Source: a virus (taxonomy: Duplodnaviria; Caudoviricetes). Taken from it: a stretch of 55,091 nucleotides of DNA. Location of the stretch: IMG/VR virus record IMGVR_UViG_3300030329_005507, positions 1-55,091 of that record; one strand, given 5' to 3'. Below, one piece after another: positions 4,104 to 45,592 of the stretch. The notes below the pieces were generated by a model, which was given only the letters and a program-made list of their open reading frames with translations, was not told the DNA's origin and ran no database searches. Each line of letters opens with the position of its first letter. The first letter of the stretch is position 1. The position numbers and the translations under genes are program-made.

Positions 4104-4206
4104 TTTTAACCAATATCAAAAGAACGTCGGTATTGCTGAAGGTTTAAAAAGAGCCATTAACACTATCGATGATGTTTTTAAAAAACTAGACAGAGAGGAT
4201 GGATAA
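4009..4206 (+). CDS. Small conserved-looking head-module protein
   Basis: 65-aa helical protein with DFNQYQKNVGIAEGL, in the usual slot before the GroES-like gene; AAAGGAGAGG upstream of a TTG start. Confidence 0.75.
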   Translation: MTITDLLEKMKETLEEQRKNLANEMVEGRISDFNQYQKNVGIAEGLKRAINTIDDVFKKLDREDG

Positions 4207-4606
4207 CATGGCTCATCTCCATGAATTAAATTGGGACAACGATCCCGAACAAGAAACACCAAAAAATCTTCCAAAGCCAACTGGCTGGAGAGTTTTAATT
4301 CAACCACAAGCACCAATAAAGAAAACTAAAAGTGGCATTTATTTACCATCTCAATCTCAAGACAATGAAGAATATTTAACAGCTCATGGTATTATATTAG
4401 ACCATGGACCATTGGCTTGGTGTGAAAGAGAAACAGGTCGTCAATGGCACAGAGGCAAGTGGGCAGATATTGGTGACCATGTCACATTTGGTAAATATGC
4501 TGGACAAAAATTAATTATTAATAGTGTCAAGTTATTATTATTAAATGATGATGAGATAACTTCTGTTGTTCCTAAAGGATGCAACATACAAAATTATATA
4601 CCATAG
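4199..4606 (+). CDS. groES: GroES-like co-chaperonin
   Basis: PKPTGWRVLIQP, KTKSGIYLP, GDHVTFGKYAG, LLNDDEI. Start may be ATG 4208. Confidence 0.88.
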   Translation: MDNMAHLHELNWDNDPEQETPKNLPKPTGWRVLIQPQAPIKKTKSGIYLPSQSQDNEEYLTAHGIILDHGPLAWCERETGRQWHRGKWADIGDHVTFGKYAGQKLIINSVKLLLLNDDEITSVVPKGCNIQNYIP

Positions 4607-7494: not shown

Positions 7495-7505
7495 TATGTA
7501 GAAAT

Positions 7506-7540
7506 ATCAAGGGAGTTTAATCGCTCCCTTGATTATTTAT
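7506..7540 (+). terminator. Intrinsic terminator-like hairpin after the capsid gene
   Basis: ATCAAGGGAG-8 nt-CTCCCTTGAT followed by TATTTAT. Confidence 0.7.
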
Positions 7541-7541
7541 C

Positions 7542-14980: not shown

Positions 14981-17544
14981 TGAGTTTAGGAGCTAACAAA
15001 CAAGCATTAATGGGTGCTGCTGGAAGTTCTGGAGCTTCTGATAATTTCTATACACATCAAATAGCAAATTCAGTTAGAATGAGTTTGAGTGGAAATAGCA
15101 CTTTAAAATTTACAGCAGGTACTCCGACAAGTGGTAAAACTTTTACATATAGTTGGTGGTTTAAAAGATATGATATTGATAGTACCTCTACTCAAAGCAG
15201 TAATGTTTTTTGTGCAGGAACAGGTGGTGGTACTTATGTATTTTGGCCATTTACTAATAGCTCTACACCACAATTTAATGGTAATTTTTCTGGTGGTAAT
15301 TTTGGAGATAATCGTTTAACCACAAATATGGAGTTTAGAGATCCATCGGCATGGTATCATTGTGTATTAAGATTTGATAGCACTCAATCATCATCTTCAC
15401 AGAGAGTTCGTCTGTACGTTAATGGTGAAGAACCAACATATGAGGATGCTTCTGTTCAATCGGCTATAGCACAAGATGGAACTTATTCATTTATGAATGC
15501 AAGTGGAGTAGTACAATCTTGGGGTGGTATTTCTGGAGTGGGTACTGGATCTGAAGGTGTTGATGTTCAACTAGCAGAGATCGTAATGTGCGATGGGCAA
15601 AGTTATGCTCCAACTGAGTTTGGAGAAACAAAAAATGGTGTGTGGATTCCTAAAGATCCAAGTGGATTAACATTTGGAAACAATGGTTATTATCTTAAAT
15701 TTACAAACAGTAGTAATTTAGGAGAAGATTTTTCTGGTAATGATAATGATTTTACTGTAGCAAATATATCATCATTTGACCAAATGACTGATACTCCAAC
15801 TAATAATTTTTGTACTATAAATCCTGTATATAGAGGAGAACAAACAACTGATGCAAAGTATGGAGTTTTATCTAAAGGTAATTTACAAATTGAATATAGT
15901 GGTAGTACAGATGGGCAACGTCCAGGCACAATTAAAGTACCAGCTTCTGGAAAATGGTATTTTGAATATGCAATAACTGGTGGTGGAGGTTCAAGCAGTT
16001 ATTCTCCAGCAGCAGGTATTATTGATCCTAATACATATACTATGAATGGAGGTAATTATAATGATACTGGTTCTATTCAATATACCAATAGTGAAAATAA
16101 AGTTAGAAAAAATGGTTCAATAGTAGGAACATATAGTGGCTCAAGAGGTTCTAATGGTGATGTCATGGGTATTGCTGCGGATATGGATAATGGTGCTTTT
16201 TATGTTAGTAAAAACGGAACATGGTATGCTATAAGTGGAGGTTCTACAGGTGATCCAACTTCAGGTGCTAGTAAAACTGGAGCAGGTGCAACATGGACAC
16301 CAGCATCAGAATATATGAATGGCATGGTTCCTTTAGCAGCTCCAACTGGAGGAAGCCAACCAATAATAATTATGAATTTTGGACAAGAAGGTACTTTTGC
16401 AAACACAGAAACAGCAGGTGATAACAGTGATGAAAATGGTTATGGTAATTTTTTCAGTGCTGTGCCATCTGGCTATTTAGCAATATGCACACAAAATTTA
16501 ACTGTTGCAGATGCAATTGATCCTGCACAGACTGACGACAATTTTCCAAAAGAATTATTTTTCATGGCTAGTTATAGTGGTAATTTAACTGGCAGAACTA
16601 TAACTACAGAAAATCAACCAGATTTAATAATTAATAGACATTCTAATACAGCTCAAAATTGGTATTATGTAGATTCTACTAGAGGAATAACAGCTAATAA
16701 ATATATTATATCAGACACAAATGCTGCTGAAGCAACTTTTCCTCAAAGTAATTACACTTCTGTAGGTGCTACTTCAGTAGGTATATCAAGTGGAACGTGG
16801 TTAAATAGTACAGGTTCAGAATATAAAATGTGGATGTTGAGAGCAAATGGAGGGACTACATCTTCTGGCTCTGGGGATTTAACATCAACACATCAAGTCG
16901 ATCCTAGTGGTGGATTTTCTATTGTTAAAGCAGTAGGTGATGGAGGATCTGGATCTAAAACTGTTTCACATGGCATGTCAGCAGCTCCAGATTGTATTCT
17001 AGCTAAAAATTTAGATTCTACTTTTAACTGGGATACTTACTGGTCTTCTGGTATTACTGCTACAAAATCATTGAGATTAAATACAAATGAAGGACAACAG
17101 ACAGGTCGTTGGGGCACAGTTAATTCTTCTATATTTACATGTGAATATAATTATACTTGGGTAGGTACAGATAACTTTATTTATTATTGTTTCAGAAACA
17201 TAGAAGGATATATTAAAGTGGGCAACTATATGGGCAATGGAAATTCAGATGGTCCATTTGTATACACAGGATTCAAACCTGCATTTGTGATGATAAAAGG
17301 TGCAGTATCAGGTGCAGCATGGGCATTGCAAGATAATACAATTTCTCCTTTTAATCCTTCTCCTGGAATTTTAGAGCCAAATAGTAATGGTGCTTTATAC
17401 ACAACTGCAAATCCAAATTTAGATATTTTAAGTAATGGTTTCAAAGTAGAAAATAACAATGCAATGATGAATAGCACAAGCTATGATCCTTATGTATATT
17501 TAGCCATAGCAGAAAATCCATTTAAATATGCACTAGGTCGATGA
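14980..17544 (+). CDS. Tail fibre/receptor-binding protein with ConA/LamG- and SPRY-like domains
   Basis: FRDPSAWYH, TFGNNGYYLKF, SGKWYFE, NFGQ, GPFVYTGFKPAFVMIK, YLAIAENPFK. Confidence 0.8.
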   Translation: MSLGANKQALMGAAGSSGASDNFYTHQIANSVRMSLSGNSTLKFTAGTPTSGKTFTYSWWFKRYDIDSTSTQSSNVFCAGTGGGTYVFWPFTNSSTPQFNGNFSGGNFGDNRLTTNMEFRDPSAWYHCVLRFDSTQSSSSQRVRLYVNGEEPTYEDASVQSAIAQDGTYSFMNASGVVQSWGGISGVGTGSEGVDVQLAEIVMCDGQSYAPTEFGETKNGVWIPKDPSGLTFGNNGYYLKFTNSSNLGEDFSGNDNDFTVANISSFDQMTDTPTNNFCTINPVYRGEQTTDAKYGVLSKGNLQIEYSGSTDGQRPGTIKVPASGKWYFEYAITGGGGSSSYSPAAGIIDPNTYTMNGGNYNDTGSIQYTNSENKVRKNGSIVGTYSGSRGSNGDVMGIAADMDNGAFYVSKNGTWYAISGGSTGDPTSGASKTGAGATWTPASEYMNGMVPLAAPTGGSQPIIIMNFGQEGTFANTETAGDNSDENGYGNFFSAVPSGYLAICTQNLTVADAIDPAQTDDNFPKELFFMASYSGNLTGRTITTENQPDLIINRHSNTAQNWYYVDSTRGITANKYIISDTNAAEATFPQSNYTSVGATSVGISSGTWLNSTGSEYKMWMLRANGGTTSSGSGDLTSTHQVDPSGGFSIVKAVGDGGSGSKTVSHGMSAAPDCILAKNLDSTFNWDTYWSSGITATKSLRLNTNEGQQTGRWGTVNSSIFTCEYNYTWVGTDNFIYYCFRNIEGYIKVGNYMGNGNSDGPFVYTGFKPAFVMIKGAVSGAAWALQDNTISPFNPSPGILEPNSNGALYTTANPNLDILSNGFKVENNNAMMNSTSYDPYVYLAIAENPFKYALGR

Positions 17545-22435: not shown

Positions 22436-22793
22436 TGAAGAAGAAATGATGATGAAAGAGACTGTTAGAGAAACTCCAGTGGCACCGAGTGCACCAGCCC
22501 CAGCACCAGCTCCACAAGGAGTTTCTCCGACATTAAATCAAGCTATGGGTGCAGAGACTTCTGAGATGATGAAAGTTGCAGATCCAAAAATACAAATGGT
22601 TCTTATGTCTCGTCTTGAAAGTTTAGCTCCTGAAGAGTTGAAACAATTAGATAAAGTTATAGATGGTAGCACAGCAAGGATTTTAATGAAATTACTTCCA
22701 GAGCTTGAGCCATTAATGATGCAATTAGCAGAAGCTGGAATCGGTGGTGGCAATGCAGAAGCTGAGATGGGTGCATTAAGTGGAATGATGTAA
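22425..22793 (+). CDS. Hypothetical virion protein
   Basis: Probable TTG start at 22425 after AGGAGA; ends AEMGALSGMM. Confidence 0.6.
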   Translation: MAISEEEMMMKETVRETPVAPSAPAPAPAPQGVSPTLNQAMGAETSEMMKVADPKIQMVLMSRLESLAPEELKQLDKVIDGSTARILMKLLPELEPLMMQLAEAGIGGGNAEAEMGALSGMM

Positions 22794-23233
22794 TGGAGAT
22801 ACGAAGAGCAAATGCTTTAGATATCTCTGCACTTATTCACTTAATAATGAAAATGCACAGTGAAGCAGAAGTTAAAATACCAACTTTAGATGTTGCCAAA
22901 GTTACAGATTCTGTAATACATGCTTTGAAAGTTGGAGTTGTAATTGTGGCTACAAATGATGAAAAGAAATTAATAGGTTCAATTGGAGGTTATGCTGCAG
23001 AAGATTGGTTTTCAAAAGATAAAGTTTTAGGAGATCTTTGGTTTTTTGTTCTTGAAGATTATAGAAAAACAAAAGCAGGAATTTCTTTAATAAAAGAATT
23101 TATTAATGTTGGAAAAGAAGCTAAATTAAATATTAAGTTAGGACATATATATTTTGGCGATATTGAAAGAAAAGATAATTTTTATGAAAAGCTCGGTTTT
23201 GTTAAAGCTGGGTGTACTTATGTGGAGAAATAA
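22793..23233 (+). CDS. GNAT acetyltransferase
   Basis: IRRA..D start, FFVLEDYRKTKAGISL (motif A), FYEKLGF. Confidence 0.85.
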   Translation: MEIRRANALDISALIHLIMKMHSEAEVKIPTLDVAKVTDSVIHALKVGVVIVATNDEKKLIGSIGGYAAEDWFSKDKVLGDLWFFVLEDYRKTKAGISLIKEFINVGKEAKLNIKLGHIYFGDIERKDNFYEKLGFVKAGCTYVEK

Positions 23234-29108: not shown

Positions 29109-30783
29109 CAATCTCCAAGAACATAGACCTTGGATCTTCATTAACAATATCAGCTACAGATTTTTTATTTCTTAAAGCTTTTATTATTCTGCCATCTACA
29201 GTCTTGTTCGCTTCCATGTCTATGTAAGTTATATTTTTGGTTGTTCCAATACGATGGCATCTATCTTCAGACTGTAATCTTGTTTCTAAATCAAAACTAT
29301 TAGAATAATATATTGCATATTCTGCTGCAGTCAGTGTTAATCCTATTCCTCCACTCTGTGGCTGTCCTATAAAGTATTTTATTTTGGGATCTCGTTGGAA
29401 TCGGTCTACAGCTGTTACTCTATCATCACTTGAAACATCGCCATAGTAAACCACAGCAGAGTCTCCTAATGCTGCTCGTATGGCCATTATATCAGCTCGG
29501 AATCGAGCCCAAATGATGATTTTTGCGTCTATTTCACTAATTATGTCTAAAAGTGCTTTTAAACGAAGATTAGTTTTATTAATTGGTTTGACTTCATTTT
29601 CAGATGGGAACCAACCACAGACAACTTGCTGTAATCTTAAAATTCTAGTGATTGTTTCTGGCACACTTATTTCATCATCACCTAATTGAGCGACATATTC
29701 ATTTTTAATTGAATTATAAATTTGTCTTTGCTCTTTAGATAATTCTACATAAGCTCTCTGATATATTTTTTCTGGTAAATCTAAACAGTTCTTTTTTAAA
29801 ACTCTATAAGAATGTCCTTTGATGCTGTTTGTTAATTCATCAACATTTTGATAACCAACAATCCATTTACGATTATCAAATTCACGCATCACGCAGTATC
29901 TTGCACGGAAAGTGTAAAAACTATCATAACCAAGAATATAAGGATCTAAAAATTTGAATTGTGAAAAGACATCTTCAGCACCTTTAGTTACTGGAGTTCC
30001 TGTAAGTATTCTTTTGTATTTTGCAAGTTTACCTAATTTAGTGATTACTTTTGTTCTATGCGTTCCTGGAGTTTTTATCCTAGAACTTTCATCAACAACT
30101 AAAAGACAATCATGAGAAAGCAAAATGTTTTCTAAATATTTCATAGCAACTTTTGAAACAAATGCTTCAACATTGAAAGAGAAAACTTTTAATATTTCTT
30201 TTGAAGCTATAACATCATTAAATTTCTTCGTATGAGTTTTATTCATACCAGAATAATAATAGATAGAATCTATTGGACACCATTTAGGCATATGTGCTGG
30301 TATCTCATTATTGAGCCAATTTCTATGAACACCATTAGGTGCTATAACAACTAAACAATTAATCTTTCCTTTGCCATAAAGATATGCAGCATTGTCAATT
30401 ATTATTTTAGTCTTTCCTGTTCCTTGTTCCATTAACAATGCAAAGTTCTCTTTATCACGACTCATGTAAAAAGCTTTTCTTTGATGCTCAAAAGGTTTTG
30501 TCTCAAATGCAAAATCATCAATGGGTGGAGTTTCAAATGTTCTATTTCTAGTTGCTTGTTCAATAGTCTCTATATAATCATCAAGAAAAACTTTTGCTTC
30601 ATCATTCCATTCTGCGTCTGGCCAATGCTTTGCTATATAATTTATGTTTGCTCCTGTTGGAGAAAATAGCATGTCACGATTTATCCACCTATGGAATCCT
30701 GGAAGTCCACTTAACAATTGTGTATTGCTAGAATCTAATTTAACTCTAGCAATACATTGTTTTCCTTTAGCGATTATTTGCAT
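29098..30783 (-). CDS. SNF2-family helicase
   Basis: MEQGTGKT, VDES, ILTGTP, GIGLTLTAA, QSEDRCHRIG. Confidence 0.92.
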   Translation of the reverse strand: MQIIAKGKQCIARVKLDSSNTQLLSGLPGFHRWINRDMLFSPTGANINYIAKHWPDAEWNDEAKVFLDDYIETIEQATRNRTFETPPIDDFAFETKPFEHQRKAFYMSRDKENFALLMEQGTGKTKIIIDNAAYLYGKGKINCLVVIAPNGVHRNWLNNEIPAHMPKWCPIDSIYYYSGMNKTHTKKFNDVIASKEILKVFSFNVEAFVSKVAMKYLENILLSHDCLLVVDESSRIKTPGTHRTKVITKLGKLAKYKRILTGTPVTKGAEDVFSQFKFLDPYILGYDSFYTFRARYCVMREFDNRKWIVGYQNVDELTNSIKGHSYRVLKKNCLDLPEKIYQRAYVELSKEQRQIYNSIKNEYVAQLGDDEISVPETITRILRLQQVVCGWFPSENEVKPINKTNLRLKALLDIISEIDAKIIIWARFRADIMAIRAALGDSAVVYYGDVSSDDRVTAVDRFQRDPKIKYFIGQPQSGGIGLTLTAAEYAIYYSNSFDLETRLQSEDRCHRIGTTKNITYIDMEANKTVDGRIIKALRNKKSVADIVNEDPRSMFLEIDDE

Positions 30784-31517
30784 TTAACAGTTTCTATTTT
30801 AATAGCATTTCTTTTTATATCCCAATCAAGATCTCTAGTTCTGCCACCTTTGCTAATAAACTTCTCATAAGATATTCCAGGATTGTTAATTACTATCTGC
30901 ATAGAGTGCCATCCGAAAGATCCTTTTCTCCTATCATTATGAGATATTGGGTGCAAGAATGTATCAGCATATTTTGAGTTTGATTTAGATTGTTTTAATT
31001 TACCAACTTCATGGATACTATTTATGTGTTTGTTTTTACCATTAAACTCATCAATATGTTTAGCACCACCTTGGTCAATTACCCAGCCATCTCTTACAAC
31101 TTGAACATGACCAGTAGTTGTAACAATATAAGTTTTACCTTTTACTGTTCCCCACTCTACAAAATTTTTCAGAGTTAATACTGTATGACCACCACTCTTT
31201 TTTGCGATGTTAAATATATTCTTCCAATTAATTTTTGTTGTTTTAAGACCTATCTTTTTGTATGCTATTTCTCTTACATCATCATAAGTTGCACCAGTGA
31301 ATTTAGTCTTTTTAGAAAACATATTATTTTTTGTTTTAATATTAGATAAAAGTCCACCTCTCCTATCTCTGTGAAGTCTTTCTAAAAGATCCCAAGCAGC
31401 ATCAAAAGAAATGTTGGCAGCAATAGCCATAGCTGTTACTCCACAATTTGGTCCACTTCTTGCTCCTTCTGGAAGAGCAAGACCTTCAGGTTTTTTATTA
31501 GTAGTATTTGACATCAT
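30774..31517 (-). CDS. Papain-like (C39-type) Cys peptidase domain fused to a small C-terminal domain
   Basis: GPNCGVTAMA (Cys), TTGHVQVV (His), VIDQ (Asp); C-terminus paralogous to that of 37837-38385. Confidence 0.55.
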   Translation of the reverse strand: MMSNTTNKKPEGLALPEGARSGPNCGVTAMAIAANISFDAAWDLLERLHRDRRGGLLSNIKTKNNMFSKKTKFTGATYDDVREIAYKKIGLKTTKINWKNIFNIAKKSGGHTVLTLKNFVEWGTVKGKTYIVTTTGHVQVVRDGWVIDQGGAKHIDEFNGKNKHINSIHEVGKLKQSKSNSKYADTFLHPISHNDRRKGSFGWHSMQIVINNPGISYEKFISKGGRTRDLDWDIKRNAIKIETVKCK

Positions 31518-31609: not shown

Positions 31610-34393
31610 TTATGTTAATTTCCGCCATCTTTCCACATACACTTTTCTAAATCCTTGCTTGACTCTTCCTTTTATTAAATACCAATCTCCAATTTTCCCT
31701 TCTTCAACAACTGGCTTCCCGAGAGTTGGATATTTGAATCTATCTATGGTACTTATAATTGGTCCTGTATCATCTTCAAAAGTTAAGTTGAGCCATAGAT
31801 TATGAGTCTCTACTCTACGACCACCTCTCTTTGCTAAATTAACTGTCTCATTCATATCTCTTAAATTCTTCTCAGTAAGCTTCCCGAAGAAAACAAAAAC
31901 TCCTGGACGATCTGCATCTAATTCTCCTATGTCTGTTATTGAAGAAGTTATGCCATGCTCTCCTGGATCTTTTTTAATATGTCCGAATAATCTTTCACAT
32001 TCAAATATATCATCATAAGGAGTAACACCTTCATTTAAAAGTTTTTCTTGTCTTGGTGTAAAAGGTATTTTTTCACTTCTTCTTTTAATTATATCTTCAG
32101 CAACTTTAGCACCAACACCTTTTATATTTGTTATTCCTCCTATAAGATCGCCATCTTTAACAGACCAATTTTCTTCAGATCTTTCTCTGTCATAAGGTTT
32201 GTATTCAAATCCTTCTTTTACAAGTTCTCTTAATAATCTAACTCCTTGATTTTCATCACGAACATTCCGTAAACACGCAGCAGCAAATTCCAAAGGAAAT
32301 CTAGACTTAAGAACACAACACCAATAAGAAAGAAGACCATAACTAATAGCATGAGAACGATTAAATGCCCAAGAGCCCATAGTATTAATATTATCCCATA
32401 TCTTTTTTGCTTCGTTTTCATCAAGACCATTTTCCTCTGCACCTACTTTAAATCTTTCCCAATATTTATCAAAAAACTCTTGCCCAAGAGATTTACTCAT
32501 AGCTTTCCTTAATTGAGATATGTCTTCCCAAGACAATTTGCCAACATGTCTGCCTATCTCCATAACTTGCTCTTGATAAACTACAATGCCATGAGTTACT
32601 TCTGTAATGTCTTTAACTAAAGGATGTAAATATTCTATTGGTGCTTCACCTGTGTGTCTTCTTATGTATTGAGTTGTTCCTCCAGAGACCAATGGTCCTG
32701 GTCTACCTAGTGCTGTCAATGCAGCGATATCTTCGAAATTATTAACTTTCATTTGTCTAGTTAAAGATTGAAGAGCATATCCTTCAAATTGAAATATACC
32801 AGAATATTTTTCATCATTTAAAACTTTAAATGCTTTTTCATCATCAAGTTTAAATTCTACTAATTTTTCCCTGCTCCATTTAACTTGGTCTAAAACATCT
32901 TGTAATACTGATAATGTTCTAAGTCCTAGTGCATCAATTTTTAATAAATTTAATTTTTCTGCATCATACTTATCAACTTGCAAAGCTTCTGTTTGCTGGT
33001 TGAATGAACAATAGTCTCTGATTGGTTTTTTAGTTACAACTATCGCAGCAGCATGGACTCCATGGTGTCTTGCATGAAATTCCATATCTGCTGCGATCCT
33101 CATTTGGGGATATTTTTTAAGAATTTTTTTACCTATTTCTAAATCATTAAATGTATCTAATATGCAGAACTCAGCACGAGCATCTCCACCACTTCTTTCT
33201 ATTATTGCACCTTTTAAATCATTAACTTCCCATTGTGGAATTTTTAAAGCTTTAGCAACTTCTGTAATTGTACTTTTTGCTTTGTATCTACTTATTGTGC
33301 CAAGTCGTGCAACTTTATCTGCACCATATTTTTCTTTTAAATATTCAAATACCATATCTCTTCTATCGTCTTGGAAATCAATATCTATATCAGGCAAATC
33401 TTCTCTGTTAAGATCTATAAATCTTTCAAATAATAAATTATGGACTAATGGGTCTACATCAGTAATCCCTAAAAGATAACAAACTAAAGAGCCAGCACTA
33501 CTTCCTCTGGCAGGACCAACTAGCATATGTTGTTTTGCATAATTTACCATATCAGCAATAACAAAAAAATAATCTTCATATTTTTTCTCATCAATTAATC
33601 TTAATTCGTATTTTAACCTTTCTTCATATTTTTTATCTTTTAAATCGACACTTAATTTTTCTGCACCTTCTAAACAAAGTTGCAAAAGAGATTTTGTTTT
33701 ATCAAACTCAACCAATTGTGCTTCTGTTAAAGATGCATTGCAATCATTAGCTATTATGTTTGTATTATCAATCGCTTCTTGTGGTGCCCAAGGAATAGCA
33801 CTTTTATACTCCCACTCGTTTAACAGATGCATTGGCTTTGTGCTATCTTGTCTATTCATACCAACAAGAACTTGATAGACTTTTTTATCTGCTAATGTTG
33901 GGTAAAAATTATCACTTGTAGCAACCAAAGGAAATTTAAGATCTAAAACTTTTTTTGTACTCATAGGATTTATTTCTGCAAATACATTTTTATTTTTCGG
34001 TAATAATCCCCAATTAGGATTTGATCCAGAAAGTATAAAAACATCATCTGATATATCAAAAAGACAAGGATAATCTAAACGAGGAATATAATAAAAATGC
34101 TCTTTAGCTGTAGCTAAAGAAGTAAGATTATATATTTCTTTTAATCCTTTGTTATTCTTAGCTAAAAAAGTCATGTAATTAATAGGCTGTTTAGTTCTTT
34201 CTTTTGCATCTTCAACAAATGCTATTTCTACTCCGAATATTGGATTTTTACATAATTTAGAAAATGGTACATGCCCCCATGTTCCATCATCTGTTATAGC
34301 TATTTTATCTGTATTACAAGTTTCAATTATTTTCTCTAATGGTCCATATGCACGGCGAAAAGAATATTCTGTCCTTACTTTTAGATTAATCAT
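31610..34393 (-). CDS. dnaE: DNA polymerase III alpha subunit (family C)
   Basis: PHP-like N-terminus, GPARGSSAGSLVCYLLGITDVDP, FERF...PDIDIDF, HAAAIV, KIDALGL, YQEQVM, FNRSHA. Confidence 0.95.
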   Translation of the reverse strand: MINLKVRTEYSFRRAYGPLEKIIETCNTDKIAITDDGTWGHVPFSKLCKNPIFGVEIAFVEDAKERTKQPINYMTFLAKNNKGLKEIYNLTSLATAKEHFYYIPRLDYPCLFDISDDVFILSGSNPNWGLLPKNKNVFAEINPMSTKKVLDLKFPLVATSDNFYPTLADKKVYQVLVGMNRQDSTKPMHLLNEWEYKSAIPWAPQEAIDNTNIIANDCNASLTEAQLVEFDKTKSLLQLCLEGAEKLSVDLKDKKYEERLKYELRLIDEKKYEDYFFVIADMVNYAKQHMLVGPARGSSAGSLVCYLLGITDVDPLVHNLLFERFIDLNREDLPDIDIDFQDDRRDMVFEYLKEKYGADKVARLGTISRYKAKSTITEVAKALKIPQWEVNDLKGAIIERSGGDARAEFCILDTFNDLEIGKKILKKYPQMRIAADMEFHARHHGVHAAAIVVTKKPIRDYCSFNQQTEALQVDKYDAEKLNLLKIDALGLRTLSVLQDVLDQVKWSREKLVEFKLDDEKAFKVLNDEKYSGIFQFEGYALQSLTRQMKVNNFEDIAALTALGRPGPLVSGGTTQYIRRHTGEAPIEYLHPLVKDITEVTHGIVVYQEQVMEIGRHVGKLSWEDISQLRKAMSKSLGQEFFDKYWERFKVGAEENGLDENEAKKIWDNINTMGSWAFNRSHAISYGLLSYWCCVLKSRFPLEFAAACLRNVRDENQGVRLLRELVKEGFEYKPYDRERSEENWSVKDGDLIGGITNIKGVGAKVAEDIIKRRSEKIPFTPRQEKLLNEGVTPYDDIFECERLFGHIKKDPGEHGITSSITDIGELDADRPGVFVFFGKLTEKNLRDMNETVNLAKRGGRRVETHNLWLNLTFEDDTGPIISTIDRFKYPTLGKPVVEEGKIGDWYLIKGRVKQGFRKVYVERWRKLT

Positions 34394-34925
34394 CTAAATG
34401 TCCTTTCGCTTTAAACCATCGTAAAACTTCTACAGTCGCCTTTACATCAGCCATAGCTCTGTGTGCACCTTTATGCTCTTGTCCTGTAACCTCTTTATAT
34501 ATGTCAACAAGCTTACGTTTCTTTCCCCAAACTTGTTGGCTGATTTCAACAGTACACAACTGCTTTGGTGGCCAAGGAAAATTTGTAACTTTATCTATTC
34601 TTATTAGATTATGTTTCAATATACCTTTATCAAAAGGAAGATTGTGAGCAACAATTGTATCTTCACCTAAGAAAAATTCTGCAAGCTTATCAAAATAACT
34701 AACAAATGGTGGCTTGTCTTTTAAATCTTCATCTTTTAAATTAGTTATTTTTATTATTTGCTCAGGGAGTGGGAAACCAGGATTGACTAAAAATTCTAAT
34801 TGTCCAACTCCTTTAAAATCATTATCTAATTTTATTCCAGCAAATTCTATAATATGTGGTTGCTCTCTTATATCAGAAGCTTCTGGCATTAGCAATCCTG
34901 TTGTTTCTAAATCAATAACTATCAT
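34386..34925 (-). CDS. DEDDh 3'-5' exonuclease (DnaQ/epsilon-like)
   Basis: IDLETTG, AHNLPFD, AHRAMADV; likely start MIVID. Confidence 0.9.
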   Translation of the reverse strand: MIVIDLETTGLLMPEASDIREQPHIIEFAGIKLDNDFKGVGQLEFLVNPGFPLPEQIIKITNLKDEDLKDKPPFVSYFDKLAEFFLGEDTIVAHNLPFDKGILKHNLIRIDKVTNFPWPPKQLCTVEISQQVWGKKRKLVDIYKEVTGQEHKGAHRAMADVKATVEVLRWFKAKGHLDD

Positions 34926-35190
34926 CAATTGTCTCCAATATAAATGCATAAACTCCTAAATCATGAATTGAATCTTGATGTGGTTTATCCCATTTGTTGC
35001 AGTATCTTATTAATTTTGTAACAATAAGATTTAATGCTCCATATCTATTAAAGTCTTCAGGAGTTTTTAAATCAATACCATTAGGGAAAAGTATTTTCAT
35101 TATCTCACCTTGAACAAGATAAGAATGACCATACTGCTCACCTCTTTGTTTAGCTGTTTTAAGAGCTTCTTCAATCTTCTTTTCAAGCAT
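34912..35190 (-). CDS. All-alpha NTP pyrophosphohydrolase-like protein
   Basis: QRGEQYG...KLIRY...HQDSIHDLGVYA. Confidence 0.65.
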   Translation of the reverse strand: MLEKKIEEALKTAKQRGEQYGHSYLVQGEIMKILFPNGIDLKTPEDFNRYGALNLIVTKLIRYCNKWDKPHQDSIHDLGVYAFILETIDDSY

Positions 35191-35386
35191 AATGATTGTC
35201 TATCTCTTTTTTCAATTTATTAACTTTTTCTGTAAGATCTTCAACTTGTTGCATAACTACATCTATTTCAGTAATGTGCTTTTCTAATCTATCCATCAAT
35301 GTAGGATGCACATCTAAAAGTCTCGCAACTGGTTGTCTATCTAATTCTAAATTATTATTTATTATTCTCAAGTGAGGTCTAGTCAT
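35183..35386 (-). CDS. Small coiled-coil protein
   Basis: Likely start MTRPHL overlapping the upstream stop (TGATG). Confidence 0.55.
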   Translation of the reverse strand: MTRPHLRIINNNLELDRQPVARLLDVHPTLMDRLEKHITEIDVVMQQVEDLTEKVNKLKKEIDNHYA

Positions 35387-35826
35387 CAGTATTCTCCTTC
35401 TGCAACTTGCATACAAGAAAGACCTAAGTCTCTCCACATTTTAACAACTTTGTCTCTATCTTCTAAAACAAACCAAACTTTTTTATCAGCAAAATGCGTA
35501 TTGTAAATATCTCTTTTAACATCTGCATCGGAGCGAGAATCTCCCAATCCTCGCATGTAAAGTCCATGAAAAGGAATATCATTTACTCTTAACCATTCCT
35601 CTGTATCTTGTTTCCATTTATCTTCACGACCAGTTACTATGTGTATCTCAGTTTCATCATCTCTGTAAAACTCTCTTAAGATATTAGCAATGTCTTCTTT
35701 AACCGAATCATTATTTGCTCTTGAATTGAACTCTTCCCAATTCTTCTCTTTTCCTTTTACATAATTAATCCTATGTAAAACATTAGCAATGGTTCCATCA
35801 ATATCGCACAATATAACTCTAATCAT
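35386..35826 (-). CDS. HAD phosphatase (T4 PNK 3'-phosphatase-like)
   Basis: CDIDGT, VTGR, LYMR...D..VK, EDRDKVVKMWR. Confidence 0.88.
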   Translation of the reverse strand: MIRVILCDIDGTIANVLHRINYVKGKEKNWEEFNSRANNDSVKEDIANILREFYRDDETEIHIVTGREDKWKQDTEEWLRVNDIPFHGLYMRGLGDSRSDADVKRDIYNTHFADKKVWFVLEDRDKVVKMWRDLGLSCMQVAEGEY

Positions 35827-36487
35827 TTTTATCCTCCTTTTTAGAATTTAATGCTTTAGCCATAGATGGTGCTGCCCATTCTGTTGGAGTTAAAAATGGT
35901 TCTGCCCAAGGATGTTTATTAACAACTTCTTTTACCATAAGCTTAAACACTTCTTGATATTCACCTTGTGCTCTTGGACTTAATCTAGATTTAGCCATTT
36001 CATGTAAAGTTCTAAGAGTGAATTTGGCTACAATATTAGTATGAATATTAGTCGGTAAAACACCACGAGCATCCTCTGCATTTATACCCATCTTAAGAAG
36101 TTCATAATATCCTGTGTGAATATCCTGCATAGTTTCTTCATAAACTTTTTTTGCTTCAGGATTTTCTAATATAGCTGGTGACATATAATAACCAAAACCA
36201 TCCATCTTTACAGTTCTTTGAGATTGTTGTGCATAACTTCCTTGACGAGTTCTTACGAACTGATGGGTGAATGCTCTTGTAACATCTCTTATATCAAAAG
36301 TATAATCTACAAATTCCCAAGACGATTTAATTGTTTTAAGCATGTAATCTAATTCACCTTGCTTTTTAGTCTCTGGCCATTTTTTGATCGAATCATAGGC
36401 ATTATCTACATTCATCAATCTAGTGTTCTTTGTAAAAAGCAAAAGATTCTTTGCATCTTCAGTGCAGTTTATTAATGTAACTTTCAT
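35819..36487 (-). CDS. thyX: ThyX-family flavin-dependent thymidylate synthase homolog with a variant motif
   Basis: HQFVRTRQGSYAQQSQR (canonical RHRxxSxxxxSxR), EDARGVLP, RAQGEY. Confidence 0.8.
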   Translation of the reverse strand: MKVTLINCTEDAKNLLLFTKNTRLMNVDNAYDSIKKWPETKKQGELDYMLKTIKSSWEFVDYTFDIRDVTRAFTHQFVRTRQGSYAQQSQRTVKMDGFGYYMSPAILENPEAKKVYEETMQDIHTGYYELLKMGINAEDARGVLPTNIHTNIVAKFTLRTLHEMAKSRLSPRAQGEYQEVFKLMVKEVVNKHPWAEPFLTPTEWAAPSMAKALNSKKEDKND

Positions 36488-36489
36488 AA

Positions 36490-36924
36490 TTAATTCCTCT
36501 CTATCTCTGTAAATATTTCATTATTAAATTGTGGTGGGAAAGATAATAAAACATAAGCTTCATAACCAGAAGTTGTTTCTATTATCTCAGCTTTTAATTG
36601 TCTGTAATTTTCTATTGTCATTTTAATATCTTCTATCATAGCTATCTCTGAACCTTGAGAAGTTCCTTCTGATAAATGATATTTAGAGCGACCTTTTACA
36701 TCACTTGATATTTTGTCAGCAGCAGATCTTTTTGCAGCCATAATTGCCATATCAAGTGCTAATTGTTTGTGCTTAGATTGACCAAAGCCAGAAGTCGTAG
36801 TGAAGCTTTTATTATATGGTGGCTCTAAGTACCAACTTGGTATTTCTATTTTATAAGGATTACTGCAACTTATTAAAGAGAAAATTATCCCAAAAAATAT
36901 TATCATTAATATAATTTTATACAT
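36490..36924 (-). CDS. Lipoprotein, LPP20-like
   Basis: Lipobox LISC after a hydrophobic stretch; PSWY, GFGQS, ALDMAIMAAK. Confidence 0.7.
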   Translation of the reverse strand: MYKIILMIIFFGIIFSLISCSNPYKIEIPSWYLEPPYNKSFTTTSGFGQSKHKQLALDMAIMAAKRSAADKISSDVKGRSKYHLSEGTSQGSEIAMIEDIKMTIENYRQLKAEIIETTSGYEAYVLLSFPPQFNNEIFTEIERN

Positions 36925-37840
36925 CTTCTTTTCCTTTCTCATGTAATGCTCTTTTGTAGCTGTTATTTAAAAAACCATCAATGACATTTATATCTTTAAC
37001 AACATCATCAAGGAGTAGCTGTCTCCAAGTGGCGAATCTTCCTAAAGAATATATTCCGTATTTTTGCGTTGTCCAGTGAATAAATTCTCTTCTTACATAT
37101 TCATCAATTGGCAACAACTTACCATATTGCATCTCTGATTGTTTTATCGGTGACAATCTTTTTGGATGTATACCAAAATCATCCATTAATGCTCCCATGA
37201 TATCAGGACCAGAATTTTTAGGTGGTCTTATAAATTCAGCGATAACCACTTTGCCAGTCACAGATATCCTATAATAATCTATTAATGGGTCTGGGTAATA
37301 AATAGTCTGATTAACATTTATCTCTGGATCTGTAATTTCAGTTCTTTGAGACCATATTGTTTTGAATTTAAATTCTGGCACATTATCCCAACCAGTTAGC
37401 TTCATTAAGATAGGCATAGGGATAGTAGATATAATTGGCTCACCAGAATTTTCTTTAACTTCTTCAAGTGTTTTATTATATTCAATATTAATACCTTCAG
37501 CCATCAAGCTAATTAAATTTGGTGGTGCAATATATCTCTCCACTGGTTCTAAATTATTAATAGACCGATCGAAATAACTTCCTGTCACTTTTTGAGAATA
37601 AAGATTAGATAAATATAATGTTGGTTCAGTGTTAAGAACTTTATCATATTTTATTGCTTTCCTTACTTTAACTTTTTTGAATGGGATGTTGGTAGCAACT
37701 CCAACAGAGTTATTTCTAAAACGCAAAAGAGCATCATGATTATTTGGTAATGATTTTTGCTTCTCTCTTATCTTTGGTGAATATCGACGCAACATATTTG
37801 CTGCCAATAATCCAGCCATGCCAGAGCCATAAATAATCAT
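36917..37840 (-). CDS. FAD-dependent oxidoreductase (Rossmann fold)
   Basis: IIYGSGMAGLLAA, ISTIPM, SLGRFATW. Confidence 0.75.
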   Translation of the reverse strand: MIIYGSGMAGLLAANMLRRYSPKIREKQKSLPNNHDALLRFRNNSVGVATNIPFKKVKVRKAIKYDKVLNTEPTLYLSNLYSQKVTGSYFDRSINNLEPVERYIAPPNLISLMAEGINIEYNKTLEEVKENSGEPIISTIPMPILMKLTGWDNVPEFKFKTIWSQRTEITDPEINVNQTIYYPDPLIDYYRISVTGKVVIAEFIRPPKNSGPDIMGALMDDFGIHPKRLSPIKQSEMQYGKLLPIDEYVRREFIHWTTQKYGIYSLGRFATWRQLLLDDVVKDINVIDGFLNNSYKRALHEKGKEDV

Positions 37841-38385
37841 CTTATTACTTTAACTCTTTTCATGTAAAGATCCCACGCAAGGTCTTGTCTTCTTCCTCCC
37901 AGTTGTATGTATTTTTCATAAGGAATCTCTTTATGTTTTAATATTATTTCAAAAGAATTAAAGCCATGACTAAATCTTCTCCTTGGGTTGTTCTCACAAG
38001 GATCTTTTAATATAATCCTTTTCCCTTCATAAATAGATTTCCTTCCTCTTTTTCCTGCTGGTTGTTTTAAATGCTTAACAGTACTTGTCGTCTCTCTTAC
38101 TTCAATTAATTTTTTTGAAGCTAATTCCATAAATAAATTCCAAGTTCTCCTGACAGCTGTTTTCCTATCAGCAAATCTTTTAACCTTATCTTTTAATGCT
38201 AAAGAATTATAAACAGAAATTAAATCTTCATTTCTAAATATATAATTATCAAAAAAATCTTGCTCACTTGTAACAAGAATTCCTGAAGTTGGATCCAAAG
38301 AAGCTCCTGATTTACTTGTAAATGCAATTATAGAATCTTTTGGATTACCATATCTGTGCAATGTAACTTTAAATATAAACATCAT
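37837..38385 (-). CDS. Hypothetical protein with the shared C-terminal domain
   Basis: NPRRRFSHGFNSFEII...YEKYIQLGGRRQDLAWDL; AGAAAGGAAT RBS. Confidence 0.7.
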   Translation of the reverse strand: MMFIFKVTLHRYGNPKDSIIAFTSKSGASLDPTSGILVTSEQDFFDNYIFRNEDLISVYNSLALKDKVKRFADRKTAVRRTWNLFMELASKKLIEVRETTSTVKHLKQPAGKRGRKSIYEGKRIILKDPCENNPRRRFSHGFNSFEIILKHKEIPYEKYIQLGGRRQDLAWDLYMKRVKVIR

Positions 38386-44822: not shown

Positions 44823-45008
44823 ATGATGTCAAAATTTAATAACTCGTATATGCTAGATTTCGCTGACTATTATAAACCTAAAAAATTAGAAGGTGGCAAA
44901 TCTTACCAAGCATATCTTAAACGTCGTAATGCACACTTTGCTAAAAAGAGAAAAGAAGAAGAACAGAGAGATCTGGATAATACTGCAATTAGTCAAGGAG
45001 AAATATAA
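44823..45008 (+). CDS. Small early protein
   Basis: GAGAAAGGAAT RBS; 61 aa. Confidence 0.7.
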   Translation: MMSKFNNSYMLDFADYYKPKKLEGGKSYQAYLKRRNAHFAKKRKEEEQRDLDNTAISQGEI

Positions 45009-45592
45009 TGAATATATTTTTTGTAGATAATAATCCTGAAACAGCAGCAAGAATGCTTTGCGATAAGCATATTGTAAAAATGCCATTAGAGTCTGCCCAG
45101 ATGCTATCCAGTGTCTGGCATAGATATGGTCATGGCGATAAAGTACAATATAAAGAATCATTTAAAAATCATCCATGCACTTTATGGGCAGGTGATAGTT
45201 ATGAAAATTATATTTGGTTAAGAAAACATGCTTTAGAATTATGTTTTGAATACACCAGACGTTATGGTAAAATTCATAAATGCCAACAAGTTATATTAGA
45301 TTTGTCAATCCCAACAAAAAAGATATGGCAAGAATGTTTTTCTACAATTCATGAAAGTTGTGCAAAAGGTTTTACAAAACCACCACAATGCATGCCAGAC
45401 ATATATAAAGCTAAAGATACTGTTCAAGCATATAGGCAATATTACGCATACCATAAAAAAGATATTGCTTATTGGGGAAGAACTCCTACACCAGATTGGT
45501 ATACTGAAATGACAAGTTGTTTTGCTGAAATGCCTCAATTTGAAGGAACTGTTAATGCCCTTGACAAATTAACAATAAGGAGAAATGCATAA
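45008..45592 (+). CDS. Pyrimidine-dimer DNA glycosylase (T4 endonuclease V-related family)
   Basis: MNIFFVD...LCDKHIVKMPLESAQMLS, NHPCTLW, EYTRRYGKIH, PPQCMP, AYRQYY. Confidence 0.8.
   Translation: MNIFFVDNNPETAARMLCDKHIVKMPLESAQMLSSVWHRYGHGDKVQYKESFKNHPCTLWAGDSYENYIWLRKHALELCFEYTRRYGKIHKCQQVILDLSIPTKKIWQECFSTIHESCAKGFTKPPQCMPDIYKAKDTVQAYRQYYAYHKKDIAYWGRTPTPDWYTEMTSCFAEMPQFEGTVNALDKLTIRRNA

Follow-up and report, generated by a model that had tools for sequence, protein, structure and literature searches.

What does a phage do with a flavoprotein, a variant thymidylate synthase and a phosphatase encoded next to its own replicative polymerase? The question is raised by an uncultured 55-kb phage (IMG/VR record IMGVR_UViG_3300030329_005507), whose whole stretch of 55,091 nucleotides, here called the window, was taken as a complete genome and whose virion, judging from SU10 adaptor domains, is podovirus-like in appearance. 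A sequence-only reading had proposed that an FAD oxidoreductase, a ThyX variant, an HAD phosphatase and an NTP-PPase make a non-canonical pyrimidine for incorporation by DnaE. In the translated ORF list, the minus-strand ORFs around ThyX form one run joined by overlaps or tiny gaps (Table 1), and the tight coupling up to the exonuclease and DnaE genes described in that reading is borne out by overlaps of 1-52 nt and a single 2-nt gap. The core module consists of the flavoprotein, the ThyX variant, the PNKP-type HAD phosphatase and a DUF6378-like four-helix protein, and it immediately precedes the exonuclease and DnaE genes. The genes and motifs listed earlier are present, whereas the 'NTP-PPase' label is unsupported. 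Two ORFs of the run, the 150-aa lipoprotein-like and the 84-aa coiled-coil ones, were absent from the earlier list.

Table 1. ORFs of the run and a related downstream ORF in the window.
Feature	Position	Strand	Remark
182-aa protein of unknown function	37837-38385	-	4-nt overlap with flavoprotein gene
Flavoprotein, 307 aa	36917-37840	-	26-nt overlap with lipoprotein-like ORF
Lipoprotein-like ORF, 150 aa	36490-36942	-	between flavoprotein and ThyX genes; 2-nt gap to ThyX
ThyX-family flavin-dependent thymidylate synthase variant, 222 aa	35819-36487	-	8-nt overlap with HAD gene
Stand-alone HAD phosphatase, PNKP type, 146 aa	35386-35826	-	Pfam HAD_PNKP; 52-nt overlap with coiled-coil ORF as listed, 1 nt if internal ATG used
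Predicted coiled-coil ORF, 84 aa	35183-35437	-	between HAD and 92-aa genes; 8-nt overlap with 92-aa gene
Four-helix protein, 92 aa	34912-35190	-	38-nt overlap with exonuclease gene
DnaQ-like 3'-5' exonuclease, 187 aa	34386-34949	-	Pfam RNase_T, phrog_192; 8-nt overlap with DnaE
DnaE-type DNA polymerase III alpha subunit, 927 aa	31610-34393	-	homology to F8/14-1 polymerase
247-aa protein	30774-31517		downstream of DnaE

The translation of the flavoprotein contains the GxGxxG (G5-x-G7-x-x-G10), ISTIP (residues 136-140) and GRFATW (267-272) motifs from which a fold of the UDP-galactopyranose mutase (UGM) or amine-oxidase type had been guessed. A Pfam scan found no family for it, neither GLF nor Amino_oxidase being matched, and in PHROGs it belongs to phrog_4828 ('unknown function', 2.8e-58). 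Its AlphaFold2 model (pLDDT 94.2) agrees with the guess: UGMs top the Foldseek list against the PDB (E 1e-10, TM about 0.6), and the best VIA-align match is 4dsg_A, the T. cruzi UGM (Z 21.3, rmsd 3.6, 297 residues aligned), followed by protoporphyrinogen oxidases (Z 17.8-18.7), with class A flavin monooxygenases and amine oxidases sharing the fold at Z 14-16.5. The family comprises 1016 clusters at 50% identity, and its profile gives a weak match to A. fumigatus UGM (E 0.04) through the motifs ISTxP...YxPE...YRA(S/T)I and GRF(A/G)(T/S)WR; invariant residues include G5, G7, G10, E26, H35, R40, R92, R102, R191, K241, R268 and D283. Homolog searches found no cellular relatives, the family being essentially viral, and we describe the protein as a phage-specific flavoprotein with a UGM/protoporphyrinogen-oxidase/amine-oxidase-type fold. 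UGMs are sugar-nucleotide enzymes. Like its best structural match, UGM (Glf; T. cruzi 4dsg, A. fumigatus 3ukh, bacterial 3hdq), the flavoprotein begins with a GxGxxG...E dinucleotide-binding segment, but sequence identity is 10-18%, and the UGM chains matched in the fold searches are 55-200 residues longer, so that the flavoprotein probably lacks part of the UGM apparatus for substrate binding. One metagenomic protein (P0142), a singleton from one contig only, carries a YfbR-like 5'-deoxynucleotidase domain fused to the flavoprotein.

The ThyX variant matches Pfam Thy1 over the full-length domain (7.4e-39; 134 bits versus a cut-off of 24.8), and its best PDB sequence match is T. maritima ThyX (5e-9). 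With canonical ThyX (PF02511; T. maritima TM0449, whose numbering we use for aligned positions) it shares this domain, the arginines R78, R80, R90, R147, R165 and R174, which are kept in 81/81 members of its clade, and the likewise conserved Ser88. As all arginines of the dUMP/FAD site are present, the variant may be an ordinary dTMP synthase. It differs from TM0449 in that RHR is RTR (R79-T80-R81 in the translation), SxRY is SQRT (S89-Q-R-T92), His53 falls in a 4-residue deletion of the Gly-His loop, His59 is Phe and Arg74 is His. The RTR and SQRT substitutions, which the sequence-only reading had already pointed out, are not peculiar to one sequence: throughout the 81 members, His53 is lost, His59 and Arg74 are replaced as above, His79 is Thr (78 members) or Asn (3), and Tyr91 has given way to Thr, Val, Ala or Ile. 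In canonical ThyX, a histidine stacks on the folate. Of four further phage ThyX proteins used for comparison, three keep GH, RHR and RY. The variant residue pattern recurs in a 'ThyX-like' protein of a Gordonia phage and, since Gordonia is outside the ten (of 19) organism groups listed in the flavoprotein tally, the ThyX variant may occur without the flavoprotein.

The next gene was correctly labeled an HAD phosphatase: it matches HAD_PNKP at 1.5e-31, and its DxDxT motif reads C-D-I-D-G-T (residues 8-13). In Pbunavirus, Wifcevirus and Rhizobium phages, the HAD domain is fused to the domain that forms the 92-aa protein of the window. The 84-aa ORF (GTG start as listed; 67 aa from the internal ATG), which has weak coiled-coil Pfam matches only, takes the position of the long linker of the fused Pbunavirus protein. 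The 92-aa protein aligns with positions 246-323 of the 339 of phrog_4889 (5.7e-15) and with the C-terminus of a protein of locus L003, and is the counterpart of the C-terminal domain of Pbunavirus ORF057, a 'polynucleotide kinase/phosphorylase'. Although it has no Pfam match itself even at E<=10 (DUF6378 and MazG included), DUF6378 is the sole Pfam family matched by its own family (23/34 members at E<=1, best 1.5e-5), which suggests a divergent DUF6378-family member. MazG-type NTP-PPases are marked by an EExxE-type acidic motif. The proposed NTP-PPase identity is not supported: the model of the 92-aa protein (four helices, pLDDT 89) has no significant fold match in the PDB, MazG-type chains appear only at a Foldseek E of about 5 (TM 0.36-0.51), and no EExxE-type motif was found among the invariant residues of the family alignment. 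The MazG-type all-alpha NTP pyrophosphohydrolases (iMazG 2q73; cyanophage S-2L MazZ 7ody) are likewise small four-helix proteins of similar size, but the 92-aa protein shares with them no significant fold match, Pfam MazG assignment or acidic cluster.

The remaining genes of the run frame this enzyme set. The exonuclease has matches to RNase_T (2.2e-26) and to phrog_192 (1.2e-42), whose annotation is 'DNA polymerase exonuclease subunit'. Over some 800 residues, DnaE shares about 40% identity with the protein annotated as DNA polymerase in phages F8 and 14-1 (E 1e-167), and the genes syntenic to it in loci L001-L003 are annotated 'DNA polymerase III alpha subunit'. The 150-aa ORF, with a hydrophobic N-terminus followed by LISC, a weak LPP20 match as its only Pfam hit (E 0.059) and a homolog in 11/80 related loci, is probably a moron outside the enzyme set. 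The 182-aa protein has no Pfam family; its gene, translationally coupled to that of the flavoprotein, has a homolog upstream of the flavoprotein gene in 54/69 related loci, and its C-terminal 52-aa domain recurs in the 247-aa protein (40% identity, E 9e-13, BLASTP). Among the roughly 60 ORFs of the complete genome scanned against Pfam or PHROGs, we found no kinase, in agreement with the sequence-only reading, and no glycosyltransferase or known amino-acid:DNA transferase; this genome also lacks an accessory SDR and other genes that relatives carry.

A gene-neighborhood search, which the sequence-only reading had proposed as a check, revealed strong conservation. In the 80 closest viral-contig loci, where each gene was scored only if enough sequence was available, the order is kept throughout: the flavoprotein gene is followed by ThyX in 75/75 loci, HAD in 56/56, the 92-aa gene in 49/49, the exonuclease in 41/41 and DnaE in 34/34, and the 84-aa ORF has a homolog in 38/51. 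Cultured phage records number 362 for the flavoprotein, 360 for the ThyX variant (E<=1e-30) and 349 for the 92-aa domain, with near-identical host profiles (Pseudomonas 292/289/279, Escherichia 27/27/27, Xanthomonas 6/6/6); about 350-360 records hold all three, among them Rhizobium phages of 200 kb as well as Pbunavirus, Wifcevirus and Carpasinavirus. Phages as different as a Vibrio phage of 40 kb, Carpasinavirus, Pbunavirus and Wifcevirus share the gene order. Rhizobium phage TM61 (203 kb) has the trio within 6.4 kb beside NUDIX, dUTPase and ribonucleotide reductase genes, not DnaE, which ties it to nucleotide metabolism rather than merely to one replicon; this context fits ordinary dTMP supply equally well.

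The chemistry of two cultured relatives bears on the product. According to the available text of a preprint (Yee et al. 2025, PMC12191111), LC-MS and restriction digests detect a sugar-like hypermodified thymidine at TG sites in the DNA of Pbunavirus F8 and 14-1. At TG sites of the virion DNA, about one T in four is replaced by thymidine derivatives (362 U and 390 U) that are interpreted as derivatives of a sugar alcohol and a cyclised aldopentose, and about three quarters of thymidines are canonical. Such phages are said there to be without known hypermodification genes, and that text names no biosynthetic genes (PMC12191111). Both phages encode homologs of the flavoprotein (34% identity, E 2e-44 and 5e-43), ThyX, the 92-aa domain, the exonuclease and DnaE. 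The Pbunavirus module, ORF065 - ORF059 (ThyX) - ORF057 - ORF056 (exonuclease) - ORF055 (DnaE), holds homologs in the same order on one strand, with identities of 34% for the flavoprotein, 38-39% for ThyX, whose residue pattern is identical, and 40% for DnaE. It differs in that the HAD and helical domains are fused via a long linker rather than separate, ThyX has a Cys-rich C-terminal extension in place of the 222-aa form, and five small ORFs, not a lipoprotein-like gene, are inserted between the flavoprotein and ThyX genes. The DNA chemistry is that of F8 and 14-1 only, and a low-power test for relaxed avoidance of TG/CA-containing palindromes gave no signal in this genome. Between F8 and 14-1, the flavoproteins are 97% and the ThyX proteins 94% identical, and of the module enzymes ORF057 diverges most (80%); because the adducts differ despite near-identical flavoprotein and ThyX, their identity may be set elsewhere. 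Modification at TG sites implies a DNA-level, sequence-reading step, and none of the module proteins is obviously a DNA-modifying enzyme that would supply it.

We therefore favor, at somewhat short of an even chance, the interpretation that the region is a minimal phage-specific pyrimidine-deoxynucleotide tailoring module, co-inherited with the exonuclease and DnaE, which most likely helps make a sugar-derived 5-substituted deoxyuridine like that of F8 and 14-1, alongside or instead of dTMP; as such, it is a plausible candidate source of sugar-decorated thymine of the F8/14-1 kind. The ThyX variant would bind dUMP and FAD and activate uracil C5, its one-carbon chemistry probably being altered because the folate-stacking histidine is lost. 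Just as UGM works at the anomeric carbon, the UGM-like flavoprotein could then use reduced flavin to act on a phosphorylated sugar or nucleotide; the HAD phosphatase would take the phosphate off the adduct or off a competing canonical nucleotide; and the product, or a donor derived from it, would enter DNA via the phage replicase or a further DNA-level enzyme. The earlier proposal of a non-canonical pyrimidine gains from the conserved neighborhood, the clade-wide ThyX changes and the hypermodified thymidine described in the available text on F8/14-1 (PMC12191111), but it loses its NTP-PPase component, the putative partner of the HAD phosphatase in clearing the canonical dNTP/dNMP, and has to accommodate the intact dUMP/FAD-site arginines and a TG-site step with no obvious enzyme.

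A real, if somewhat doubtful, alternative is ordinary nucleotide supply, in which the ThyX variant makes dTMP, the flavoprotein serves as an accessory redox partner or is a conserved but unrelated protein of the replication module, trimming of the nucleotide pools falls to the HAD and helical proteins, and the DNA is canonical. Thymidylate synthase is common in phages, the variant scores far above the Pfam cut-off with its dUMP/FAD-binding arginines and Ser88 in place, the TM61 trio adjoins dUTPase and ribonucleotide reductase, kinase, transferase and glycosyltransferase are absent from the roughly 60 ORFs scanned, and the canonical majority of F8/14-1 thymidines reported in the available preprint text means that dTMP is needed anyway. 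What dTMP supply leaves unexplained is the co-inheritance of a flavoprotein without cellular relatives with this ThyX clade (about 360 cultured phages, 75/75 loci) and the loss of His53, His79 and Tyr91 in 81/81 members; moreover, F8 and 14-1 do have modified thymidine, for which that text gives no origin (PMC12191111).

Two further readings concern single parts of the module. It is unlikely, in our estimation, that the PNKP-type HAD and its helical partner remove 3'-phosphates from nicked phage DNA for the exonuclease and DnaE, with ThyX and the flavoprotein as independent neighbors; this reading covers the HAD and helical genes only and is compatible with the others, so that its low probability is no exclusive share. 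Such end healing is suggested by the best family match, the phosphatase domain of polynucleotide kinase-phosphatase, by the position of the HAD gene upstream of the exonuclease and DnaE, and by a DNA ligase gene within the same module in the Vibrio phage, F8 and 14-1. However, Pfam detects no kinase domain, the HAD-helical fusion of TM61 sits among nucleotide-pool enzymes away from a DnaE gene, and repair does not account for the close association of the helical domain with the ThyX clade and flavoprotein. That the flavoprotein is instead a hydroxylase or oxidase acting directly on base or DNA (e.g. by pyrimidine oxidation), rather than a UGM-like non-redox enzyme, with ThyX only supplying its substrate, seems to us very improbable. 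Its fold is indeed common to class A flavin monooxygenases and amine oxidases, and the available text of PMC13326640 describes a phage thymidylate-synthase homolog that performs flavin-dependent pyrimidine hydroxylation, but UGMs top both fold searches, and sequence-level motif matches are to UGM only.

Compared with the known thymidine hypermodification pathways (Lee et al. 2021, PMC8989533), which combine a ThyA-type dUMP hydroxymethylase, a 5-hmdU DNA kinase, an aGPT-Pplase amino-acid:DNA transferase and tailoring enzymes, the tailoring module favored here differs: a P-loop DNA kinase, aGPT-Pplase, PLP or radical-SAM enzyme was not found in the roughly 60 ORFs (Pfam or PHROGs), and its synthase is of the ThyX type, unrelated to ThyA. 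Both nevertheless place a thymidylate-synthase-superfamily-like starting enzyme by the phage replication genes, and both include a flavoenzyme, which is MnmC1-like in PaMx11 gp47 (PMC8989533) and UGM-like in the window.

The genome, rated 100% complete by CheckV (55,091 bases, G+C ~33%, no tRNA genes found in the window), carries the terminase, portal, capsid, an SU10-type adaptor and other late genes on the plus strand. One replication module runs on the minus strand from ~44.2 kb to ~28.2 kb in the order primase, UvrD-like helicase, the genes of the candidate pathway, DnaQ-like exonuclease, DnaE, a 247-aa protein and SNF2 helicase. Between 38385 and 31610 the ORFs either overlap by 4–52 nt or are spaced by 2 nt and are therefore translationally coupled, which bears out the tight coupling proposed by the sequence-only reading. 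The genes and motifs named in that reading are all present; the label NTP-PPase that it gave the 92-aa protein is not upheld, and two ORFs in the range had gone unmentioned: an 84-aa coiled-coil gene, and a 150-aa lipoprotein-like ORF that separates the flavoprotein gene from ThyX. The latter is found in only 11 of the best 80 of 468 relatives and may be a moron serving, for example, superinfection exclusion. The enzyme–polymerase block is bracketed by a repeated C-terminal domain of 52 aa (40% identity, E 9e-13). It is shared by the 247-aa protein, encoded directly downstream of DnaE, and a 182-aa protein whose gene directly precedes the flavoprotein gene; neither protein matches a Pfam family. 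A megablast search with 14 kb of the window found no match among cultured phages. CpG is strongly depleted across the window (observed/expected 0.41), with CCGG occurring 0 times against 9 expected and TCGA 58 times against 132 expected.

Features of the window and of related loci. The locus column gives loci that carry the gene downstream of the flavoprotein gene on the same strand, out of loci with enough flank among the best 80 of 468 confirmed relatives; the next column gives records in the cultured-phage collection with the threshold applied.
Feature	Genome or locus	Position	Strand	Loci	Cultured-phage records	Remark
182-aa protein	window	37837-38385	-			
Flavoprotein, 307 aa	window	36917-37840	-		362 (E<=1e-5)	
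Lipoprotein-like ORF, 150 aa	window	36490-36942	-			LISC after a hydrophobic N-terminus; LPP20 match weak (E 0.059)
ThyX variant, 222 aa	window	35819-36487	-	75/75	360 (E<=1e-30)	
HAD phosphatase, 146 aa	window	35386-35826	-	56/56		
84-aa ORF	window	35183-35437	-	38/51		
92-aa helical protein	window	34912-35190	-	49/49	349 (E<=1e-3)	
Exonuclease	window	34386-34949	-	41/41		
DnaE	window	31610-34393	-	34/34		
247-aa protein	window	30774-31517	-			
DenV-like protein, 194 aa	window	45008-45592	+			Pyr_excise (Pfam), 4.4e-12; phrog_624
GNAT acetyltransferase	window	22793-23233	+			Acetyltransf_7 (Pfam), 8.1e-8
Cpn10/GroES-like co-chaperonin	window	4199-4606	+			1.3e-10
Staphylococcal-nuclease-like protein	window	140-511	+			SNase, 1.2e-9
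ThyX	Carpasina (L002)	7004-7762				Cys-rich extension
ThyX	Pbunavirus (L003)	8193-9110				Cys-rich extension
ThyX-like thymidylate synthase, 378 aa	Gordonia phage Suzy (L086)	302-1438				
HAD-helical ORF057	F8 (L092)	15772-16836				
HAD-helical ORF057	14-1 (L093)	15940-16956				
SDR reductase	L030	11036-11812				accessory
206-aa protein	L027	4201-4821				accessory
Class I methyltransferase	L005	10786-11349				accessory

The ThyX protein spans the whole of the Pfam Thy1 profile (PF02511, profile positions 1–191 of 191; 134 bits, cut-off 24.8; E 7.4e-39). The canonical ThyX motif is RHR-x7-S; the window protein reads R79-T80-R81-x7-S89, with SQRT at 89–92, and RHR-x7-S does not occur. The RTR and SQRT variants picked out earlier are thus real, and the departures extend to all 81 clade members (the window, three cultured phages and 77 viral-contig loci) in an alignment that also held four other phage ThyX proteins and to which T. 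maritima numbering was transferred by phmmer alignment to T. maritima ThyX chains. All 81 retain the residues aligned to Q75, E58 and R78, R80, R90, R147, R165 and R174, the arginines being those we take to bind dUMP and FAD in the T. maritima enzyme; the Ser88 position holds Ser or Thr. All 81 also have a 4-residue deletion of the Gly-His loop at the position of His53, Phe for His59 and His for Arg74. The His79 position is Thr in 78 of them and Asn in three, and the Tyr91 position is Thr, Val, Ala or Ile and in no case Tyr. His53 reportedly forms a stack with the folate pterin; the PDB includes entries in which Ala or Asp takes its place, so the residue has been studied. As judged from the alignment, the pattern says that the nucleotide and flavin sites would be intact and the carbon-donor side rebuilt, and does not indicate the product.

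Of the four comparison proteins, three have GH, RHR and RY. The remaining one, from Gordonia phage Suzy, shows the variant pattern: the Gly-His loop is absent, the motif reads THQxVRTR, and SMRF stands in place of SQRY. Because Suzy shares this pattern and Gordonia is not one of the ten groups of organisms that the flavoprotein tally lists by name (the tally has further, unnamed groups), the ThyX variant may be broader than the module and occur without the flavoprotein in Gordonia phages. The ThyX proteins of Carpasina and Pbunavirus, in contrast to that of the window, carry a Cys-rich C-terminal extension (HCVATGxCAFPR...C.FY.P.MD), which may be a metal or cluster site.

The flavoprotein matches no Pfam family at E<=0.01, GLF included, and falls in phrog_4828, annotated "unknown function". 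It belongs to a large and essentially viral family, with 2262 proteins at E<=0.001 in a word-index search and 1016 clusters at 50% identity in an exhaustive search. An AlphaFold2 model built from a 48-sequence alignment (pLDDT 94.2) retrieved UDP-galactopyranose mutases (UGMs) as the top Foldseek matches (E 1e-10, TM ~0.6). A Foldseek-independent fold search with VIA-align placed T. cruzi UGM first (4dsg_A, Z 21.3, rmsd 3.6, 297 aligned), ahead of protoporphyrinogen oxidases (Z 17.8–18.7) and then amine oxidases and flavin monooxygenases (Z 14–16.5); structure rows of the ESM Atlas gave PPO/mutase clusters (TM 0.74–0.78). The earlier guess of a UGM/amine-oxidase-type fold is therefore right by predicted fold, yet the protein is not a GLF member by sequence, and it is 55–200 residues shorter than the UGM chains found in the fold searches. 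Against the PDB, the single sequence gave a chance match only (E 1.8) and the family profile a weak one to A. fumigatus UGM (E 0.04), spanning three motifs that include YRA(S/T)I and GRF(A/G)(T/S)WR.

The three motifs on which that guess drew are found in the translation (GxGxxG at 5–10, ISTIP at 136–140, GRFATW at 267–272). Invariant in the 48 sequences are G5, G7, G10 and E26, that is, the FAD-binding GxGxxG and the acidic residue ending strand 2, together with R40, R92, R102, R191, R268, H35 and K241; these arginines, H35 and K241 would suit a phosphorylated substrate. R191 aligns, in an HMM alignment that is weak (E 23 for the stretch), to A. fumigatus R327 of the YRAT motif, presumably the catalytic-site arginine of UGM. 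A search for longer proteins with the flavoprotein in fused form (539–2000 aa) came back empty. The sole fusion, of a YfbR-like HD domain to the flavoprotein (P0142), is weak evidence since it is a singleton on one contig. A complex prediction for two ThyX copies with the flavoprotein scored 0.00 against a mark of 0.32 and, run without controls, counts neither for nor against binding.

The HAD protein matches Pfam HAD_PNKP (PF25109; 109.9 bits, cut-off 27.6; E 1.5e-31) and has the DxDxT nucleophile motif as D9-I-D11-G-T13; D-x-D-G-T is present in all homolog N-termini inspected except one (L054). Even at E<=10 the 92-aa protein finds nothing in Pfam, and its relatives match DUF6378 only (23 of 34 members, best E 1.5e-5). 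It is confidently modelled as four helices (pLDDT 89), for which nothing in the PDB is significant: MazG-type chains appear at a Foldseek E of ~5, and the best VIA-align Z is 7.0, to unrelated helical proteins. EExxE is the acidic metal-binding motif of MazG-like NTP pyrophosphohydrolases; the invariant residues of the family alignment (T12, Y20, G21, P36, G38, K59, R62, D73, S74, D77, V80, Y81) include no such acidic cluster. On these grounds we treat the MazG reading as a possibility and have not adopted it.

The module is conserved well beyond the window. Near-identical host profiles were found for flavoprotein, ThyX variant and 92-aa domain in the cultured-phage collection, as a comparison of tallies rather than of record lists: Pseudomonas 292/289/279, Escherichia 27/27/27, Serratia 9/8/9, Rhizobium 8/10/9 and Xanthomonas 6/6/6, respectively. 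The neighbourhood comparison suggested at the outset came out in favour of a conserved module, with the order flavoprotein, ThyX, HAD(-helical), exonuclease, DnaE kept in four cultured-phage groups (a 40-kb Vibrio phage, Carpasinavirus, Pbunavirus and Wifcevirus) and in all viral-contig loci with enough flank. The synteny of the 80 loci adds less than this cross-family comparison because they form one fairly close lineage (52–63% identity). In Rhizobium phage TM61 (203 kb) the three core genes lie within 6.4 kb amid NUDIX, dUTPase and ribonucleotide reductase genes, a context that points to a tie with the nucleotide pool and not with one particular replicon.

Among the best 80 of 468 relatives, the module also holds an SDR reductase (33/80; also inside the module of Carpasina and of Wifcevirus FEC19), a 206-aa protein (28/80) and a class I methyltransferase (6/80). 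None of these is in the window, which therefore represents a minimal core. A homolog of the DenV-like protein (T4 endonuclease V / pyrimidine-dimer DNA glycosylase) lies between ThyX and HAD in 48 of the 80 loci; in the window it is ~7 kb away on the opposite strand. We rejected it as a core member: it occurs in 595 phage records, mostly of cyanophages, Vibrio and Acinetobacter phages, with Pseudomonas accounting for only 38, a distribution that does not follow that of the module.

The sugar-like modified thymine of Pbunavirus DNA dates only from a 2025 preprint (Yee et al., PMC12191111), whose consulted portions report that F8 DNA resists five enzymes with TG in their sites, that new derivatives of thymidine, at 362 U and 390 U, show up in nucleoside digests of F8 and 14-1, and that modified derivatives stand in for about a quarter of the thymidines in both phages. 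The same portions cite Pbunaviruses as modified phages from which the known modification genes are absent and give no genes themselves; no gene assignment was found in the literature consulted, to which the journal version of the END-nuclease work (Nat Microbiol 2026) and its supplements may add. By tblastn, the window proteins find homologs in F8 and 14-1 (flavoprotein 34% identity, E 2e-44 and 5e-43; ThyX 38–39%; DnaE 40%), and both phages also hold homologs of the 92-aa domain and the exonuclease, in the module order of the window. F8 and 14-1 share 97% identity in the flavoprotein and 94% in ThyX. The HAD-helical protein ORF057 is only 80% identical, amid neighbouring replication proteins at 94–99%, in two phages whose adducts differ.

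Taken together, these results support a conserved set of enzymes, confined to phages, that acts on pyrimidine deoxynucleotides, and make the module the best available candidate for the Pbunavirus thymidine modification. A role in modification, as put forward in the sequence-only reading, seems to us a real possibility that falls a little short of an even chance: conservation and the F8 and 14-1 homologs speak for it, and the missing link from gene to chemistry and the unsupported NTP-PPase speak against it. A flavoprotein resembling a sugar mutase would be in keeping with an adduct derived from a sugar; a ThyX whose carbon-donor side is rebuilt would be in keeping with non-standard C5 chemistry. 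The reading has its weak points. TG specificity calls for a DNA-level reader, which is not evident in the module; F8 and 14-1 differ in adduct and, by sequence comparison, barely in flavoprotein or ThyX; the possible occurrence of the ThyX variant without the flavoprotein in Gordonia phages may be another. As had been noted of kinases from the start, neither a kinase nor a transferase is recognisable among the ~60 ORFs scanned. Avoidance of TG/CA palindromes, a proxy for TG-site protection, did not differ from that of other palindromes in the window genome (Mann–Whitney p 0.93 for 4-mers and 0.91 for 6-mers; power low). Plain dTMP supply, the rival to be set against these points for and against modification, is rather doubtful, if quite conceivable.

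A more specific form of the modification reading, which we consider unlikely, would have the UGM-fold flavoprotein and the folate-site-less ThyX join a sugar to deoxyuridylate, at C5 or at the C5-methyl, through a flavin-mediated C–C or ether coupling. UGM chemistry proceeds through a flavin-N5 iminium at sugar C1, and in ThyX chemistry a flavin-N5-bound carbon is passed to C5 of dUMP. The adduct masses fit such a coupling when calculated with standard formula masses: the value of 362 U corresponds to dU + pentose − H2O + 2H and equally to dT + tetrose, that of 390 U to dU + hexose − H2O and equally to 5-hmdU + pentose − H2O.

Beside the module, among late and structural genes, the window encodes a co-chaperonin, a nuclease-like protein and a GNAT acetyltransferase, the last without a link to the module. 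Acetyltransferases tailor some thymidine hypermodifications, PaMx11 gp48 being an example in the consulted part of PMC8989533.

The module provides a short, testable list of three to four candidate genes for the Pbunavirus modification. Among Pseudomonas phages, Pbunaviruses rank with those most used in therapy. If the link is true, it would represent a new enzymatic route of DNA hypermodification, would make modification predictable from sequence in more than a thousand phage lineages, abundant marine ones included, and would bear on restriction and defence evasion, host-range prediction, and sequencing or amplification bias in viromes. Should sugar-to-C5 coupling hold as well, the 1016 flavoprotein clusters, which come from public genome and metagenome data including Tara ocean, would imply that such bases occur in a large part of the phage DNA in the environment. 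If the link fails, there remains a flavoprotein family that is large and purely viral, together with a ThyX subfamily.

Known 5-hmdU-based systems rely on a ThyA-type hydroxymethylase, a P-loop 5-hmdU DNA kinase and an aGPT-Pplase transferase, whereas the window lacks all three, no ORF of the ~60 scanned from the complete genome matching any of them in Pfam or PHROGs; sugar-to-C5 coupling, if true, would be a new route to hypermodified thymidine without 5-hmdU kinases or glycosyltransferases. With the Pbunavirus-type module, in contrast, the window shares homologs of all core proteins, in equal order and beside exonuclease and DnaE, and it contributes a complete genome in which the core is reduced to a minimum, while F8 and 14-1 are now directly confirmed to carry the module.
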